Source: Escherichia coli
GTDB lineage: Bacteria; Pseudomonadota; Gammaproteobacteria; Enterobacterales; Enterobacteriaceae
NCBI RefSeq assembly: GCF_003334785.1
Contig: NZ_QOWV01000001.1
Reading direction: 5' to 3' (one strand)
Length of the DNA stretch: 64,000 nucleotides
Shown: positions 1,207 through 59,376 of the stretch, in pieces
How the letters are laid out: each line of letters starts with the position of its first letter
Numbering within the stretch: position 1 is the first letter of the stretch
The notes under the pieces: generated by a model
What the model was told of the DNA's origin: nothing
Databases searched by the model: none
What the model saw: the letters and a program-made list of their open reading frames with translations, nothing else
Position numbers and translations under genes: made by a program

Positions 1207-1869
1207 TCAGGAAGATGGTTGTTTTTCCGCCCACTGCAGGAAAGTATTTCGCGTTTGTGGGTCAGCCAGTTTAAACCAATACTTCAGCCGTTGTTCTGTG
1301 AGCACCTGAGACTGCGGTGGAATAGCATCCAGCTCGGAAACACCCGAAAGCAGCGTACTGTCATCTGCCATCATCGTGGCAAATTGCGGTAGTGAAGCGC
1401 GTTTCGCGGATTTGTTATAGCGTTCAACCTCGACCTCATAATCAATCGTTTTTGCCGTTGAGGTAATGGCGAGAATATCCAGCTTTACCGGAATCGGCGT
1501 CGCATCGCCATCCAACAATTCAAGGCGCGGCGCGGCATCAAAATGGTTAGCTTCCCGCTCATTCTCCAGGCGAGGCAGGCGAAAATTGACCTGGTTGATG
1601 AGCTGGGTATTAAAACTGACCACCAGCGGTGGGGAGATATACAGCCGTTCTTCACTATTGGAAAGATGAATCGTCTTCTCAACGCGAAACACTAACTGAT
1701 GCGGTCCATTATCCAGTTCAATGCTGTCCGCACCGCGCAGCAGAGAGCTGGAAACCTTCTTGCCGTCGAGTACCAGAAGATCGACATCGGTTGAAAGCCG
1801 CAGCGTGGTGGCAAAAACGGATACCGGCAAACATAATGCAATCAAGGTGGTCACGATGCCGGTTTTCAT
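1207..1869 (-). CDS. yccT: secreted protein of unknown function (220 aa)
   Basis: ORF with N-terminal signal-peptide-like segment [20 protein letters not shown]; position between mgsA and yccU. Confidence 0.8.
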
Positions 1870-2041
1870 AGGTAGCTCCTGTCAAAAGACCGCCCGAATA
1901 ATAATGTGTCAAAATTTTTCTTTAATCATACTTACTAACATATAGACATATTTCCCGCTTTTGCTCTCATTCATTCGTATTAGCTGCATGGTTGGCATGT
2001 CGGCTTTGTCGTACACTTTGTTAAACAGTCTGGAGGAAATA

Positions 2042-2455
2042 ATGAAAGAAACCGATATTGCAGGCATTTTAACGTCCACTCACACCATTGCGCTGGTGGG
2101 GGCAAGCGACAAACCCGATCGTCCCAGCTATCGCGTGATGAAATATCTACTCGACCAGGGGTATCACGTCATTCCGGTTTCGCCAAAAGTTGCCGGCAAA
2201 ACGCTGCTGGGCCAGAAGGGGTATGGCACGCTGGCAGACGTTCCGGAAAAAGTCGATATGGTCGATGTTTTCCGTAATTCAGAAGCGGCGTGGGGCGTGG
2301 CACAGGAAGCTATTGCCATTGGCGCGAAAACCCTCTGGATGCAACTGGGGGTGATTAATGAGCAAGCGGCAGTACTGGCACGGGATGCCGGGTTAAATGT
2401 GGTGATGGATCGCTGCCCGGCTATTGAGATCCCTCGCCTGGGCCTGGCCAAATAA
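2042..2455 (+). CDS. yccU: CoA-binding domain protein (137 aa)
   Basis: ATG at 2042 preceded by GGAGG; sequence [22 protein letters not shown]... recognised as YccU; the longer ORF from 1961 has no ribosome-binding site. Confidence 0.85.
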
Positions 2456-2460
2456 AAAAT

Positions 2461-2486
2461 CCCCGGAAGGCAAAAACCTTCCGGGG
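2461..2486. terminator. bidirectional rho-independent terminator between convergent yccU and hspQ
   Basis: Perfect inverted repeat ccccggaagg-caaaaa-ccttccgggg flanked by A-run upstream and T-rich run downstream. Confidence 0.6.
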
Positions 2487-2499
2487 ATTTGTTCAGGGA

Positions 2500-2874
<375 letters not shown>

Positions 2875-4065
2875 TTACATGACGCGACAGGCAAACCCTT
2901 TCAGATATAGCCCTTCCGGATAGGTAGCGATCACCGGATGATCGGCTGCCTGACGGAACTGCTCTATAAATTGTACATCACGACCGGCATCAATTGCGGC
3001 ATCCGCGATGATTTTCTGAAATAAATCGCTGGTCATCAGACCGGAACAGGAGAAAGTCAGGAGAATACCGCCTTCATTCAGCAGCTGAATCGCCAGCATG
3101 TTGATGTCTTTATAACCACGACACGCGCCCATCAACTGGCTTTTATTCTCAACAAACTTCGGCGGGTCCATCACGATAACGTCAAATTTTTCACCGCGAT
3201 CGCGATAAGTACGCAGCAATTTAAAGACATCATCACGGACAAACTCAGCCTTGCTCAGATCCAGTTTGTTCAGCTCAACGTTCTGCCGTGCAATATCCAG
3301 CGCTTCCTGGGAGGTATCAACGCTGACAACCTGGCTGCAACCGCCCATCAGTGCCGATACGGCGAAACCACCGGTATAGGAGAAACAGTTCAGCACACGT
3401 TTATTTTCAACGTAGCGGCGGGTAGCCAGGCGGCTATCACGCTGGTCCAGGTAGTAGCCCGTTTTGTGTCCGTGCTGAATATCCACCAGCAGTTTCATTC
3501 CGTGTTCTTCAATCGGCAGCAGGGCAGGTGGCAACTCGCCGGTGACGGGGCCCTGGGTCAGCTCCATTCCTTCTTTTTTACGTACCGCGACGTCGCTGCG
3601 ATCGTAAATCGAACATTCCGGGTACAGCGTTTGCAGGGCACTAATTAATGCCGCGCGCTGATATTCTGCCCCAGCACTCAGCAGTTGCAGCACCAGAAAA
3701 TTACCGAAACGATCGATAGTAATACCCGGCAGGCCATCAGATTCTCCGGCGATTAAACGATAGCTGTCGAGGCCATCTTTTTGCGCCAGCCAGTCACGCC
3801 ATTTTTGTGCTTGTTGCAAACGGCGGGAAAAAAAAGCAATGTCGATAGACTCAGACGGGTCAAACGTCCAGACGCGCGCCCGGATTTGCGAAGCTGGCGA
3901 ATAAGCGCCGCGTGCTAACCATTTTCCCTGATGATCAACAATATCGATGGTTTCACCGAGGCTGGCTTTACCTTCCATGCGGGCAACGGCCCCGGAAAAG
4001 ACCCACGGATGGCGACGAAGTAATGATTTTTCGCGCCCTTTGGCTAACACTAAACGTACACTCAT
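2875..4065 (-). CDS. rlmI: 23S rRNA m5C1962 methyltransferase (396 aa)
   Basis: Full-length ORF recognised as RlmI (PUA plus SAM-dependent methyltransferase domains). Confidence 0.9.
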
Positions 4066-5514: not shown

Positions 5515-5720
5515 TGAGTCACTCTCTATGACAGATGTAATTAATTAAGCAGCATAATGATAATGCGTAAGGGCACCCAGAAGTTTTACCCATCTTTACG
5601 CATTTGATCTGGAACAGGTTTAACAGCGGATTATCAGGTCATTAAGCAAATATAACGCCCTGAGAATTTCGACAGGCAAAAGAAAAAGGGGTTAGCATTT
5701 AGCTAACCCCTTATCTTATT

Positions 5721-7353: not shown

Positions 7354-9143
7354 GCACTCAGTACGAAACTCAGGGATACACCATCAATAATGCCGGACGC
7401 CGCCTGGTGGTCGACCCGATTACGCGCATCGAAGGCCACATGCGCTGCGAAGTGAATATTAACGATCAGAATGTGATCACCAATGCCGTCTCCTGCGGCA
7501 CCATGTTTCGCGGGCTGGAGATCATCCTACAAGGGCGCGACCCGCGCGATGCGTGGGCGTTCGTTGAACGTATCTGCGGCGTCTGTACTGGCGTACACGC
7601 CCTGGCTTCGGTTTACGCCATCGAAGATGCTATCGGTATTAAAGTGCCGGACAACGCCAATATCATCCGCAACATTATGCTGGCAACGCTCTGGTGCCAC
7701 GATCATCTGGTGCACTTCTATCAGCTTGCCGGGATGGACTGGATCGATGTGTTAGATGCGCTGAAAGCCGACCCGCGGAAAACCTCCGAACTGGCGCAAA
7801 GTCTCTCCTCTTGGCCGAAATCATCCCCTGGCTATTTCTTCGACGTACAAAACCGCCTGAAAAAATTTGTTGAAGGCGGGCAGTTGGGGATCTTCCGCAA
7901 TGGCTACTGGGGGCACCCGCAGTACAAACTGCCGCCAGAAGCTAACCTGATGGGCTTTGCCCACTATCTCGAAGCTCTCGATTTCCAGCGTGAAATTGTC
8001 AAAATCCACGCGGTCTTTGGCGGTAAAAACCCGCATCCAAACTGGATTGTCGGCGGGATGCCTTGCGCCATCAACATTGACGAAAGCGGCGCGGTCGGGG
8101 CAGTCAATATGGAACGCCTGAACCTGGTGCAGTCAATTATCACCCGCACGGCGGACTTCATTAACAACGTGATGATCCCCGACGCCTTAGCCATCGGTCA
8201 GTTCAACAAACCGTGGAGCGAAATCGGCACTGGTCTTTCTGATAAATGCGTTCTCAGCTACGGCGCATTCCCGGATATTGCCAACGACTTTGGCGAGAAA
8301 AGTCTGCTGATGCCTGGCGGCGCGGTGATTAACGGCGACTTCAACAATGTGCTGCCAGTGGATTTGGTTGATCCGCAGCAGGTGCAGGAGTTTGTCGACC
8401 ACGCCTGGTATCGATATCCCAACGATCAGGTCGGGCGTCATCCGTTCGATGGCATCACCGACCCGTGGTACAACCCCGGCGATGTCAAAGGCAGCGATAC
8501 CAACATTCAGCAGCTGAATGAACAGGAACGCTACTCGTGGATCAAAGCGCCACGCTGGCGCGGTAACGCGATGGAAGTGGGGCCGCTGGCGCGCACGTTA
8601 ATCGCTTATCACAAAGGCGATGCTGCGACCGTTGAGTCGGTCGATCGCATGATGTCGGCGTTGAACCTGCCGCTTTCCGGTATCCAGTCAACGTTAGGCC
8701 GCATTTTGTGCCGCGCGCACGAAGCGCAGTGGGCCGCAGGTAAGTTGCAGTATTTCTTCGACAAGCTGATGACCAACCTGAAAAACGGCAATCTCGCCAC
8801 TGCTTCCACGGAAAAATGGGAACCTGCAACCTGGCCGACAGAGTGCCGTGGTGTCGGTTTTACCGAAGCGCCGCGCGGGGCGTTAGGCCACTGGGCCGCC
8901 ATTCGCGATGGCAAGATTGATCTCTACCAGTGCGTGGTGCCGACCACCTGGAACGCCAGCCCGCGCGATCCCAAAGGGCAGATTGGCGCTTATGAAGCGG
9001 CGCTGATGAACACCAAAATGGCGATCCCCGAGCAACCGCTGGAGATCCTGCGTACTCTGCACAGCTTTGACCCGTGCCTCGCCTGTTCAACACACGTGCT
9101 GGGTGACGACGGTAGCGAGCTGATCTCCGTGCAGGTGCGTTAA
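7350..9143 (+). CDS. hyaB: hydrogenase 1 large subunit (597 aa)
   Basis: Recognised as HyaB; N-terminal RIEGH and C-terminal DPCLACSTH Ni-Fe ligand motifs; start overlaps hyaA stop. Confidence 0.9.
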
Positions 9144-9161
9144 CAGCGAAGGAGAATCATC

Positions 9162-9869
9162 ATGCAACAGAAAAGCGACAACGTTGTCAGCCACTATGTC
9201 TTTGAAGCGCCAGTGCGCATCTGGCACTGGTTGACGGTGTTATGCATGGCGGTGTTGATGGTCACCGGATACTTTATCGGCAAGCCGCTACCTTCCGTCA
9301 GCGGCGAGGCGACGTATCTGTTCTATATGGGCTACATCAGGTTAATTCACTTCAGCGCCGGGATGGTTTTTACCGTGGTTTTGCTGATGCGGATCTACTG
9401 GGCTTTTGTTGGCAATCGATACTCCCGCGAGCTGTTTATCGTGCCGGTATGGCGTAAAAGCTGGTGGCAGGGCGTGTGGTATGAAATCCGCTGGTATCTG
9501 TTTCTGGCAAAACGTCCGAGTGCCGATATAGGCCATAATCCCATCGCCCAGGCGGCGATGTTCGGCTATTTCCTGATGTCGGTCTTTATGATCATCACTG
9601 GTTTTGCGCTGTACAGCGAACACAGCCAGTACGCTATTTTTGCGCCGTTCCGTTATGTGGTGGAATTTTTCTACTGGACGGGTGGCAACTCAATGGACAT
9701 TCACAGCTGGCATCGGCTGGGGATGTGGCTGATTGGCGCGTTTGTGATCGGTCATGTCTACATGGCGCTGCGTGAAGACATCATGTCCGACGACACGGTG
9801 ATCTCCACCATGGTCAACGGCTACCGTAGCCACAAATTTGGCAAAATAAGTAACAAGGAGCGTTCATGA
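9162..9869 (+). CDS. hyaC: hydrogenase 1 cytochrome b subunit (235 aa)
   Basis: Membrane ORF recognised as HyaC; operon position. Confidence 0.9.
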
Positions 9870-52623: not shown

Positions 52624-54132
<1,509 letters not shown>

Positions 54133-54597
54133 GGGACTTAGCCTGCGGCGGTTTTGTTTGGCTTCAGCAGCGGGTTGCGCTCCCTTAATGTGCCTCGCCA
54201 TATAAATTGAATGGTGCAGGGAGCGCGCAGGGGGCGGCCAATCGCCGCCGCCCCCTGCTGTCCCGGCCTTCGGGGAACGCTTCAGCGATTTTGACGCCAC
54301 CAACACCCGAGCTGTTATTATGTTCCGGGCAAAAAGTTAGATTTGATAATCGCGGATGGACGAAATTGCTTGATACACCCGCTTATCAGTTTTACATGGA
54401 AGCTCTGATGCATTGAGTCTGGACAGTTTTGTCGGCTGGATACGGCGTTTACGCGGCATCCGGCAAGAACACATGGTTCTTTGCAAACAATCCCATCTTT
54501 CTACCCTGGAATAATCGTTTATATCCCTTGGCATTACCTCTCTTTGTTTACATTCCAACATCATTTTATAAACATTCCGCTTGTGTTTTTCTTTGCC

Positions 54598-54617
54598 GTA
54601 ATGATAATCGCTATCAC
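54598..54617. promoter_or_regulatory. Fur box in the efeU promoter
   Basis: cgtaatgataatcgctatc (54597..54615) matches about 15 of 19 positions of GATAATGATAATCATTATC, about 60 nt upstream of the efeU ATG. Confidence 0.55.
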
Positions 54618-54674
54618 TGCGATTTACTTTTCTTTGCATAGATTGACTCAGAAAAACGTTTAAGGGTGGGTGGC

Positions 54675-55505
54675 ATGTTTGTTCCGTTTCTCATTATGTT
54701 GCGCGAAGGACTTGAAGCCGCGCTGATTGTCAGTTTGATTGCCAGCTATCTTAAGCGTACCCAGCGAGGCCGATGGATTGGTGTGATGTGGATTGGCGTG
54801 TTGCTTGCCGCTGCGTTGTGCCTGGGCTTGGGTATCTTCATTAACGAAACCACCGGCGAATTTCCGCAAAAAGAACAGGAACTGTTTGAAGGTATCGTGG
54901 CGGTGATCGCCGTGGTGATCCTTACCTGGATGGTTTTCTGGATGCGCAAAGTGTCGCGCAACGTCAAAGTGCAACTGGAACAGGCAGTCGATAGCGCATT
55001 GCAGCGTGGAAATCATCATGGCTGGGCGCTGGTGATGATGGTCTTTTTTGCCGTTGCAAGGGAAGGGCTGGAGTCGGTCTTTTTCCTGCTGGCGGCATTT
55101 CAACAAGATGTCGGGATCTGGCCGCCGCTGGGTGCAATGCTCGGTCTTGCTACTGCCGTGGTGCTAGGCTTCCTGCTCTACTGGGGCGGTATTCGCCTCA
55201 ATCTTGGTGCATTTTTTAAATGGACCAGCCTGTTTATTCTCTTCGTCGCCGCAGGGCTGGCAGCTGGTGCCATTCGCGCATTTCATGAAGCCGGATTGTG
55301 GAACCACTTTCAGGAAATCGCCTTCGATATGAGTGCGGTGCTCTCAACTCACTCGCTGTTTGGCACGCTGATGGAAGGGATTTTTGGCTATCAGGAAGCG
55401 CCGAGCGTCAGCGAAGTCGCCGTCTGGTTTATTTATCTCATCCCGGCGCTGGTGGCATTTGCTCTGCCACCACGCGCAGGGGCGACAGCGTCTCGCTCCG
55501 CGTAA
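54675..55505 (+). CDS. efeU: ferrous iron permease EfeU (276 aa), FTR1 family, apparently intact
   Basis: Uninterrupted ORF from MFVPFLIMLREGLEAALIV... carrying both REGLE motifs (REGLEAA, REGLESV). Confidence 0.85.
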   Translation: MFVPFLIMLREGLEAALIVSLIASYLKRTQRGRWIGVMWIGVLLAAALCLGLGIFINETTGEFPQKEQELFEGIVAVIAVVILTWMVFWMRKVSRNVKVQLEQAVDSALQRGNHHGWALVMMVFFAVAREGLESVFFLLAAFQQDVGIWPPLGAMLGLATAVVLGFLLYWGGIRLNLGAFFKWTSLFILFVAAGLAAGAIRAFHEAGLWNHFQEIAFDMSAVLSTHSLFGTLMEGIFGYQEAPSVSEVAVWFIYLIPALVAFALPPRAGATASRSA

Positions 55506-55562
55506 CAAATACGACGCAAACTCTTGCTTAGTTACAACATACTTTAAAGGGATAGTCTCGTC

Positions 55563-56690
55563 ATGACCATTAACTTCCGCCGTAACGCATTGCAGTTGAG
55601 CGTGGCTGCGCTGTTTTCTTCTGCTTTTATGGCTAACGCCGCTGATGTGCCGCAGGTCAAAGTGACCGTGACGGATAAGCAGTGCGAACCGATGACCATT
55701 ACGGTTAACGCCGGGAAAACACAGTTCATTATTCAGAACCACAGCCAGAAGGCGCTGGAGTGGGAGATCCTCAAAGGCGTGATGGTGGTGGAAGAGCGGG
55801 AAAATATCGCCCCTGGCTTTAGCCAGAAAATGACGGCGAATTTACAGCCTGGCGAATACGATATGACCTGCGGTCTGCTGACTAACCCGAAAGGGAAGTT
55901 GATCGTCAAAGGTGAGGCAACGGCGGATGCGGCGCAAAGTGATGCGCTGTTAAGTCTTGGTGGTGCAATTACTGCATATAAAGCGTATGTCATGGCGGAA
56001 ACCACGCAGCTGGTGACCGACACCAAAGCCTTTACCGACGCGATTAAAGCAGGCGATATCGAAAAAGCGAAAGCACTGTATGCACCGACGCGCCAGCACT
56101 ATGAGCGTATTGAACCGATTGCTGAACTGTTCTCCGATCTGGATGGCAGCATTGACGCCCGTGAAGATGATTACGAGCAAAAAGCCGCCGACCCAAAATT
56201 CACTGGTTTCCACCGTCTGGAAAAAGCATTGTTTGGCGACAACACCACCAAAGGGATGGATCAGTACGCTGAGCAGCTTTATACCGATGTGGTCGATTTG
56301 CAAAAACGCATCAGTGAACTGGCTTTCCCACCTTCAAAAGTGGTCGGCGGCGCAGCCGGACTGATTGAGGAAGTGGCAGCCAGCAAAATTAGCGGTGAAG
56401 AAGATCGCTACAGCCACACCGATCTGTGGGATTTCCAGGCTAACGTTGAAGGCTCGCAGAAAATTGTCGATTTGCTGCGTCCACAACTGCAAAAAGCCAA
56501 CCCGGAACTGCTGGCAAAAGTCGATGCCAACTTTAAAAAGGTCGATACCATTCTGGCGAAATACCGTACTAAAGACGGTTTTGAAACCTACGACAAATTG
56601 ACCGATGCCGACCGGAATGCACTGAAAGGACCGATTACTGCGCTGGCGGAAGATCTGGCGCAACTTCGCGGTGTGCTGGGACTGGATTAA
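55563..56690 (+). CDS. efeO: periplasmic iron uptake protein EfeO (375 aa)
   Basis: Signal peptide [26 protein letters not shown]; operon position. Confidence 0.9.
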
Positions 56691-56695
56691 GCGTT

Positions 56696-57967
56696 ATGCA
56701 GTATAAAGATGAAAACGGCGTGAATGAACCGTCACGCCGACGTTTACTGAAAGTGATAGGTGCACTGGCGCTGGCGGGAAGTTGTCCGGTCGCTCATGCA
56801 CAAAAAACGCAAAGTGCGCCGGGTACGCTTTCACCGGATGCTCGCAATGAGAAACAGCCGTTTTATGGTGAGCATCAGGCAGGGATCCTGACGCCACAAC
56901 AGGCCGCAATGATGCTGGTGGCGTTTGATGTGCTTGCCAGCGATAAAGCCGATCTTGAGCGGTTGTTTCGCTTGTTGACTCAGCGTTTTGCTTTTCTGAC
57001 TCAGGGCGGAGCAGCACCAGAAACGCCAAATCCGCGCCTGCCACCACTCGATTCCGGCATTCTTGGCGGCTACATTGCGCCCGATAATCTCACCATCACG
57101 TTATCGGTGGGTCACTCATTGTTTGATGAGCGCTTTGGCCTTGCGCCACAGATGCCAAAAAAGCTGCAGAAGATGACGCGTTTCCCCAACGACTCGCTGG
57201 ATGCGGCGTTATGTCATGGTGATGTGTTGCTACAGATTTGCGCCAACACCCAGGACACGGTTATCCATGCGCTGCGCGATATCATCAAACACACGCCGGA
57301 TTTGCTCAGTGTGCGCTGGAAGCGGGAAGGGTTTATTTCCGATCACGCGGCGCGTAGTAAAGGCAAAGAGACGCCGATTAATTTGCTGGGTTTCAAAGAC
57401 GGCACTGCCAATCCCGATAGCCAGAATGATAAGTTGATGCAAAAAGTGGTGTGGGTAACGGCAGATCAGCAGGAGCCTGCGTGGACAATCGGTGGCAGCT
57501 ATCAGGCAGTACGCTTGATTCAGTTTCGAGTGGAATTTTGGGACAGAACGCCGCTGAAAGAACAGCAGACGATTTTTGGCCGTGATAAGCAAACCGGTGC
57601 GCCGCTGGGAATGCAGCATGAGCATGATGTGCCTGATTACGCCAGCGACCCGGAAGGGAAGGTGATCGCGCTGGACAGCCATATCCGGCTGGCGAATCCC
57701 CGCACGGCGGAGAGTGAGTCCAGCCTGATGCTGCGTCGTGGCTACAGTTATTCACTGGGCGTCACCAACTCCGGGCAACTGGATATGGGGTTGCTGTTTG
57801 TCTGCTACCAACACGATCTGGAAAAAGGCTTCCTGACAGTACAAAAAAGGCTCAATGGCGAAGCGCTGGAGGAATACGTTAAACCTATCGGCGGCGGTTA
57901 TTTTTTTGCGCTGCCGGGGGTGAAGGACGCGAACGATTATTTCGGAAGCGCGTTATTGCGGGTTTAA
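56696..57967 (+). CDS. efeB: Dyp-type haem peroxidase EfeB (423 aa), Tat signal
   Basis: [17 protein letters not shown] twin-arginine signal; recognised as EfeB. Confidence 0.9.
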
Positions 57968-57974
57968 TGTTTTT

Positions 57975-58110
57975 AGGCGGATAAGGCATTTGTGCGCAGA
58001 TGCCTGATGCGACGCTTGCGCGTCTTATCATGCCTACAATCAGTGCGGGTTTGGTAGGCTGGATAAGGCGTTCACGCCGCATCCGGCGATCGTGCACTGA
58101 TGCCTGATGC
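57975..58110. repeat. REP/BIME-like palindromic element cluster
   Basis: Repeated gcctgatgcgacgc / ggataaggcgttcacgccgcatccggc units downstream of efeB. Confidence 0.6.
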
Positions 58111-58144
58111 AAATCCTGCTGAAAGCACACAGCTTTTTTCATCA

Positions 58145-58162
58145 CTGTCATCACTCTGTCAT
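58145..58162 (+). promoter_or_regulatory. Pho box (PhoB binding site) of phoH
   Basis: CTGTCAT-cact-CTGTCAT direct repeat about 150 nt upstream of phoH. Confidence 0.7.
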
Positions 58163-58311
58163 CTTTCCAGTAGAAACTAATGTCACTGAAATGGTGTTTT
58201 ATAGTTAAATATAAGTAAATATATTGTTGCAATAAATGCGAGTTCTGTTGTACTTATTAAGTAGCAGCGGAAGTTCCCGGCAGTGATAGTCAGTCACTAT
58301 GGAGATCGCGG

Positions 58312-59376
58312 ATGGTAACGTCCTGTACTGGACATGTTTTAGATAATCAACGCGCCACCACTCGCGGAGTTTTCTCCTCCGGTAGTCATCTCGTCACTTT
58401 GCATTTTCAACCTCATCCTTTCTTTTCATGTGTTACCGACGCCGTAAACGGTGCGCGTAGCCGTTTTTCGGCATTTTATCCAAAAGCAAACTATGGCTTA
58501 CAAGGAAGCCAACCCTCTGATGTTCGTGCGCATAATCGCGCTGCCAACGGCGCGTGTGATGAATACAAACAACTCAAGGTGCTCTCCATGGGAAGACAAA
58601 AAGCAGTGATCAAAGCTCGTCGCGAGGCAAAACGTGTGCTGAGACGGGATTCGCGCAGCCATAAGCAGCGTGAAGAAGAATCGGTCACCTCGCTTGTGCA
58701 GATGGGCGGCGTAGAAGCCATTGGTATGGCCCGCGACAGTCGCGATACTTCGCCCATCCTCGCGCGAAATGAAGCGCAATTGCACTATCTGAAGGCTATT
58801 GAGAGTAAGCAGCTGATATTCGCCACGGGCGAAGCCGGGTGCGGAAAAACCTGGATCAGCGCAGCAAAAGCGGCAGAGGCCCTGATACATAAGGATGTCG
58901 ACAGGATTATCGTCACCCGTCCAGTTCTGCAAGCCGATGAAGATCTTGGCTTCTTACCTGGAGATATCGCAGAAAAGTTTGCTCCCTATTTTCGCCCGGT
59001 CTACGACGTGCTGGTCCGGCGCTTAGGGGCTTCCTTTATGCAGTACTGCCTGCGACCGGAAATAGGGAAGGTGGAAATTGCGCCGTTCGCCTATATGCGT
59101 GGACGTACCTTTGAAAATGCAGTCGTCATTCTTGACGAGGCGCAGAATGTGACTGCCGCGCAAATGAAAATGTTTTTAACCCGCCTCGGGGAGAACGTGA
59201 CGGTTATCGTCAACGGTGATATCACGCAATGCGATTTGCCTCGCGGCGTGTGCTCCGGATTAAGTGACGCGCTGGAACGTTTCGAAGAAGATGAAATGGT
59301 TGGGATCGTCCGGTTCGGTAAAGAGGACTGCGTACGTTCGGCACTTTGCCAACGTACGCTGCATGCCTACAGTTAA
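58312..59376 (+). CDS. phoH: phosphate-starvation-inducible ATPase PhoH (354 aa)
   Basis: Walker A GEAGCGKT and Walker B motifs; length matches PhoH. Confidence 0.9.
   Translation: MVTSCTGHVLDNQRATTRGVFSSGSHLVTLHFQPHPFFSCVTDAVNGARSRFSAFYPKANYGLQGSQPSDVRAHNRAANGACDEYKQLKVLSMGRQKAVIKARREAKRVLRRDSRSHKQREEESVTSLVQMGGVEAIGMARDSRDTSPILARNEAQLHYLKAIESKQLIFATGEAGCGKTWISAAKAAEALIHKDVDRIIVTRPVLQADEDLGFLPGDIAEKFAPYFRPVYDVLVRRLGASFMQYCLRPEIGKVEIAPFAYMRGRTFENAVVILDEAQNVTAAQMKMFLTRLGENVTVIVNGDITQCDLPRGVCSGLSDALERFEEDEMVGIVRFGKEDCVRSALCQRTLHAYS

Follow-up and report, generated by a model that had tools for sequence, protein, structure and literature searches.

A very probably ancestral, intact efeUOB operon in a close wild relative of Escherichia coli K-12

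The stretch of E. coli DNA analyzed here (64 kb in all, hereafter the window) very probably carries the ordinary, ancestral and intact E. coli efeUOB operon, in a very close wild relative of K-12. Its first gene, efeU, runs on the plus strand from an ATG at 54675 to a TAA at 55503 to 55505 and comprises 831 nt, or 276 amino acids plus the stop, as read from the ORF list and the raw sequence. The initial annotation described the gene as a single intact 276-codon ORF; the frame from 54675 to 55505 (+) is indeed uninterrupted, and no internal stop was seen in the ORF list, in the raw sequence, or in the alignment with K-12. An in-frame GTG at 54666, nine bases 5' of the ATG, offers an alternative start that would extend the protein to 279 amino acids, while RefSeq starts the identical protein, WP_000497942.1, at the ATG and thus uses the 831-nt form. 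A Shine-Dalgarno-like AAGGG, read from the sequence, lies at 54662 to 54666 on the plus strand, 8 nt 5' of the ATG.

EfeU is a seven-helix FTR1-type inner-membrane permease in which two RExxE motifs line the iron path. The 276-amino-acid product of the window gene was assigned to the FTR1 family of inner-membrane iron permeases by three models: the NCBIfam EfeU equivalog NF041756 (331.2 bits; cut-off, 255), TIGR00145 (351.7 bits; cut-off, 303.8; residues 1 to 273), and Pfam FTR1, PF03239 (E = 2e-89; residues 1 to 275). Because the FTR1 and TIGR00145 models are matched from end to end, efeU contains no hidden indel, a possibility that the initial annotation had raised against itself. Both REGLE motifs that it had reported were recovered, the first at 54702 to 54716 (+; residues 10 to 14) and the second at 55059 to 55073 (+; residues 129 to 133). 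A Kyte-Doolittle profile, which gives a hydropathy estimate only, shows seven hydrophobic stretches in the protein, the first and fourth of which hold the motifs. No homologous solved structure was detectable in a sequence search of the PDB. The window EfeU has 100% identity to its O157:H7 counterpart (WP_000497942.1), and a strain with only 95% DNA identity over the region also encodes this protein, under the same accession. To judge from these sequences, the retention of an identical protein in spite of such DNA divergence indicates strong purifying selection on EfeU.

In K-12 MG1655 (NC_000913.3), efeU (b4490) is annotated as a pseudogene of 830 nt at 1081356 to 1082185. The statement in the initial annotation that the K-12 gene is frameshifted is confirmed both by this annotation and by the loss of one base in the alignment. 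In a global pairwise comparison of the two genes, the sole difference is one G, with 830 of 831 positions identical. The indel lies at the GG dinucleotide at 54780 to 54781 (+), in codon 36 (GGT, Gly36), where K-12 has a single G and hence an inactivating frameshift; the K-12 frame is therefore one G short rather than intact. The missing base throws the K-12 reading frame off at codon 36, and codon 37 is a stop (...RGRWIV and then the stop), so that the protein is cut to 36 residues and would contain the first helix only, while the other 240 codons can still be read in the +2 frame, where they are the same as those of the window. A passage in the genome paper on EAEC 042, citing Grosse et al. 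2006, describes the EfeUOB system of MG1655 as nonfunctional through the efeU frameshift (PMC2808357). The difference between intact efeU and the K-12 frameshift is already published and has been known since 2006 to 2007.

The distribution of the two alleles was examined among 5,426 complete E. coli genomes, 5,418 of which contain the efeU region. The K-12 deletion allele was counted with a 40-mer centered on the deletion, so that every 28-base megablast seed was forced across the junction, and was matched in 367 of the 5,426 genomes. The corresponding 41-mer for the intact allele was matched in at least 3,929; genomes that match neither probe presumably carry SNPs nearby. Most of the 60 frameshift-allele matches listed are, by name, MG1655, W3110, DH10B, MC4100, TOP10, XL1-Blue and similar laboratory strains or transconjugants. 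Intact efeU is the norm in E. coli, and K-12 is the exception; at this locus, the K-12 reference is unrepresentative of the species. The closest matches to the last 25 kb of the window are human, animal and NCTC isolates, which align at full length in a single piece and carry the GG allele. The best ten of these matches span exactly 25,000 bases, and the segment is thus free of indels relative to them.

The whole window is colinear with K-12 positions 1025905 to 1090680 at 99.97% identity. Besides the extra G in efeU, it differs by 19 substitutions and by the absence of IS1D, a 768-bp element that in K-12 (NC_000913, 1049778 to 1050545) is inserted between gfcA and cspH, upstream of gfcA. The empty IS1D site corresponds to 23865 to 23873 of the window, where a 9-bp overlap of two BLAST blocks marks the target duplication. 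Taken together, the 19 SNPs and the missing IS1D identify the window as DNA of a close natural relative of K-12 and not of a K-12 derivative. So high an identity, along with a key difference that amounts to a single base in a two-base run, could also be read as a sequencing or assembly artifact, or as a secondary reversion, in a true K-12 strain. We rejected such a derivative with a reverted or miscalled base and regard this reading as extremely unlikely, because the window also shows 19 other SNPs in 64 kb and an empty IS1D site, whereas SY3626C1, the one frameshift-carrying record compared that turned out to be K-12, matches MG1655 at 100.000% identity across 49 kb. Moreover, the GG allele occurs in the thousands of complete genomes counted above, the closest matches of the window among them, and homopolymer errors do not typically arise in runs of two bases.

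Non-synonymous differences from MG1655 (given as K-12 to window, with the window position) are found in appC (N214D, 12475), appA (L220F, 15370), etk (V121E, 17945), torS (Y29D, 29413), yccE (I88T, 37617, and V342A, 38379), putA (M946I, 49364) and pgaB (V639M, 61263). At both yccE sites, the window allele is shared by EC06 (NZ_CM169496.1), a human gut isolate from Spain that has the K-12 efeU frameshift as well as an IS1 at the same gfcA site as K-12 (8442 to 9271 and 40097 to 43321 of its sequence). Across 49 kb, 14 positions distinguish EC06 from MG1655. Seven of these lie within the IS1 and seven outside it, the latter made up of three at which EC06 has the window allele and four that are private to it. 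A deletion in EC06 fuses gfcB and gfcD.

EC06 hints that the efeU frameshift predates laboratory culture and that the frameshift clade may include wild strains. The window could accordingly represent a wild lineage, 0.03% from K-12, that is ancestral both at efeU and at the IS1 site upstream of gfcA, with the frameshift having arisen naturally in a narrow K-12 clade after the two lineages split; we give this scenario about an even chance. If it is true, the efeU frameshift is not an artifact of laboratory domestication. With 19 SNPs in 64 kb, the strain also provides a nearly isogenic natural background in which EfeUOB can be studied without repair of K-12.

In the same comparison with K-12, etk (16126 to 18306, minus strand) was found to contain a premature TAG at codon 690 (window position 16239), where K-12 has CAG. 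The nonsense codon costs the protein its last 37 residues, among them the C-terminal tyrosine cluster YSYGYNYYGYSY. A search of the 5,426 complete E. coli genomes with a 41-mer specific for this allele gave no match, and the change is thus either a mutation private to the strain or an error of sequencing. In either case, Etk, the tyrosine kinase of the group 4 capsule, would probably be impaired, although the gfc promoter is free of IS1.

Downstream of efeU, the operon continues in the same orientation with efeO and efeB, and since the G of codon 36 is kept, none of the three genes is disrupted. EfeO belongs to the periplasmic cupredoxin/M75 proteins, and EfeB is a Tat-exported DyP heme peroxidase. 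The window efeO (55563 to 56690, +) encodes a periplasmic partner of 375 amino acids that scores 479.5 bits against NF041757 (cut-off, 270) and 772 bits against PRK10378. The 423-amino-acid product of efeB (56696 to 57967, +), a DyP-type heme peroxidase/deferrochelatase, scores 617.7 bits (cut-off, 428) against TIGR01412, a model of Tat-substrate DyP peroxidases. By motif inspection only, EfeO has an N-terminal Sec-type signal peptide, and EfeB has a twin-arginine motif, SRRRLLK, within its first 20 residues. Both genes are nucleotide-identical to those of K-12, where RefSeq annotates EfeO and EfeB as intact proteins, and no substitutions separate the two strains between window positions 54781 and 58242. 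Compared with the O157:H7 proteins, EfeO differs by 1 amino acid and EfeB by 5. No RNA families were found by an Rfam search of 54000 to 58400.

A Fur-box-like operator, CGTAATGATAATCGCTATC, is located at 54597 to 54615 (no strand assigned), 60 bp 5' of the efeU ATG, and matches 15 of the 19 positions of the 19-bp Fur consensus used, GATAATGATAATCATTATC. The initial annotation had pointed out a Fur-box-like sequence at this place, and its resemblance to the consensus is statistically unexpected: it is the sole site in the 64-kb window with at least 15 of 19 matches, chance alone would give about 0.12 sites of this quality in the whole window and, for the 542-bp spacer between putP and efeU, 0.0016, and one arose in 1 of 20 shuffles of the sequence. 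The box is also unchanged in the window, K-12, O157:H7 and the strain that is only 95% identical over the region, while the sequence farther 5' varies among these four strains. We therefore predict from the sequence that a putative operator at 54597 to 54615 mediates Fur-dependent repression by iron; according to a review, EfeUOB is Fur regulated (PMC3832793). A hairpin at 54606 to 54624 was considered as a terminator and rejected, as it overlaps the palindromic Fur box and as one such hairpin was found against 2.4 expected by chance. Farther upstream, some 95 bp beyond the putP stop, 54227 to 54258 form a perfect 12-bp GC-rich inverted repeat (GCAGGGGGCGGC and GCCGCCCCCTGC, with 8 nt between the arms), and a REP-like sequence of the GCCGGATGC type is found near 54430 to 54465; both lack a T-run behind them.

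A CpxR-like box, GCAAAGAAAAGTAAA (54623 to 54637, minus strand), which fits GTAAA-N5-GTAAA with one mismatch, lies between the Fur box and the efeU ATG. With 6 such matches in the window and 3.0 expected, the box has no significance by itself. The GCAAAGAAAAGTAAA box is thus a candidate CpxR site only, one that agrees with the negative control of efeU by CpxR reported in a study of the CpxR regulon (PMC9600279). The same study lists yccA among the CpxR-activated genes, and a perfect CpxR consensus, GTAAAGATGGGTAAA, is present in the window about 70 bp 5' of the yccA start (5585 to 5599, minus strand).

A scan of 54100 to 55600 detected no consensus sigma-70 promoter in the putP-efeU intergenic region. 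The result bears on whether efeU might be intact in an operon that is otherwise silent or defective, for example because its promoter is lesioned or because efeO or efeB carries a harmful change. We consider this very unlikely. In the aligned 145 bases 5' of the efeU start, as in efeO and efeB, no base differs from K-12, where efeO and efeB are annotated as encoding intact proteins, and transcription of efeU has been measured in E. coli (PMC9600279). The few amino acid differences of EfeO and EfeB from their O157:H7 counterparts likewise argue against such a change.

Among the closest known systems is the EfeUOB (YcdNOB) of O157:H7. Its gene order is efeU-efeO-efeB, as in the window, and its Fur box and the last 80 bp in front of the efeU start are identical to those of the window. 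The two loci differ in that about 2.1 kb of additional DNA, absent from the window and from K-12, lies between putP and efeU in O157:H7; the transporter itself is no different. In O157:H7 PV15-279 (1243 to 3914), the putP-efeU spacer measures about 2.7 kb and includes a hypothetical gene of 1,344 nt encoded on the other strand, compared with 542 bp in the window and K-12, and similarity to the window resumes about 135 bp 5' of efeU. EfeUOB is described as functional in O157:H7 and Nissle 1917 in passages of two papers (PMC3832793, PMC2808357) that, like PMC4746246, draw on Cao et al. 2007 and Grosse et al. 2006. The first of them states that the systems of both strains promote growth under aerobic, low-pH, low-iron conditions. 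Since the window EfeU is identical to the O157:H7 protein, its EfeUOB is predicted to work as in O157:H7. The claim of the initial annotation that the system should be functional is thereby strengthened, given also that all three genes are intact, and we predict Fe2+ uptake activity for the EfeUOB of the window.

EfeUOB has been called analogous to the Ftr1-Fet3 system of yeast, and in Bacillus subtilis EfeB and EfeO oxidize Fe2+ in succession and deliver Fe3+ to EfeU (PMC3832793). Yeast Ftr1p, the permease of the high-affinity Ftr1p-Fet3p permease/ferroxidase pair, has paired RExxE motifs and belongs to the same permease fold family (Pfam FTR1, PF03239) as EfeU. Its partner is a multicopper oxidase, whereas the bacterial partners are EfeO, a cupredoxin/M75 protein, and EfeB, a DyP heme peroxidase. 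Oxidation, whether periplasmic or extracellular, is coupled to permeation by an analogous logic in the two systems (PMC3832793). By this analogy, EfeO and EfeB would process periplasmic Fe2+, most likely by oxidizing it, and hand Fe3+ to EfeU, which as the permease would import the iron received from them. Under iron-replete conditions, Fe2+-Fur would repress transcription at the operator 60 bp upstream, and low pH would induce efeU transcription through relief of CpxR repression, as reported. K-12 itself lost EfeUOB when one G of efeU codon 36 was deleted.

What EfeO and EfeB do biochemically is debated in the literature, with Fe2+ oxidation on one side and the extraction of iron from heme on the other, and heme-iron extraction has been studied for EfeB/YfeX. 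EfeUOB might thus serve mainly to extract iron from heme, with EfeB acting as a deferrochelatase and EfeU importing only the released iron. The name "deferrochelatase/peroxidase" that NCBIfam and RefSeq give to EfeB is in keeping with such a role, but reviews describe EfeUOB as a system for uptake of Fe2+ (and, in B. subtilis, also of Fe3+) at low pH and low iron (PMC3832793). Although the sequence separates neither role from the other and the two are not mutually exclusive, we regard heme as the main iron source as unlikely and favor Fe2+ uptake. The strain, like most E. coli, should then have a low-pH route of Fe2+ uptake that K-12 lost, a difference that becomes relevant only when K-12 physiology is extrapolated to the strain.

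Beyond the operon, the longest ORF of phoH (58312 to 59376) encodes, as in the K-12 annotation, a PhoH protein of 354 amino acids, while for the same gene of other genomes PGAP gives a form of 262 amino acids (789 nt), which is a discrepancy in the annotation of the start codon.
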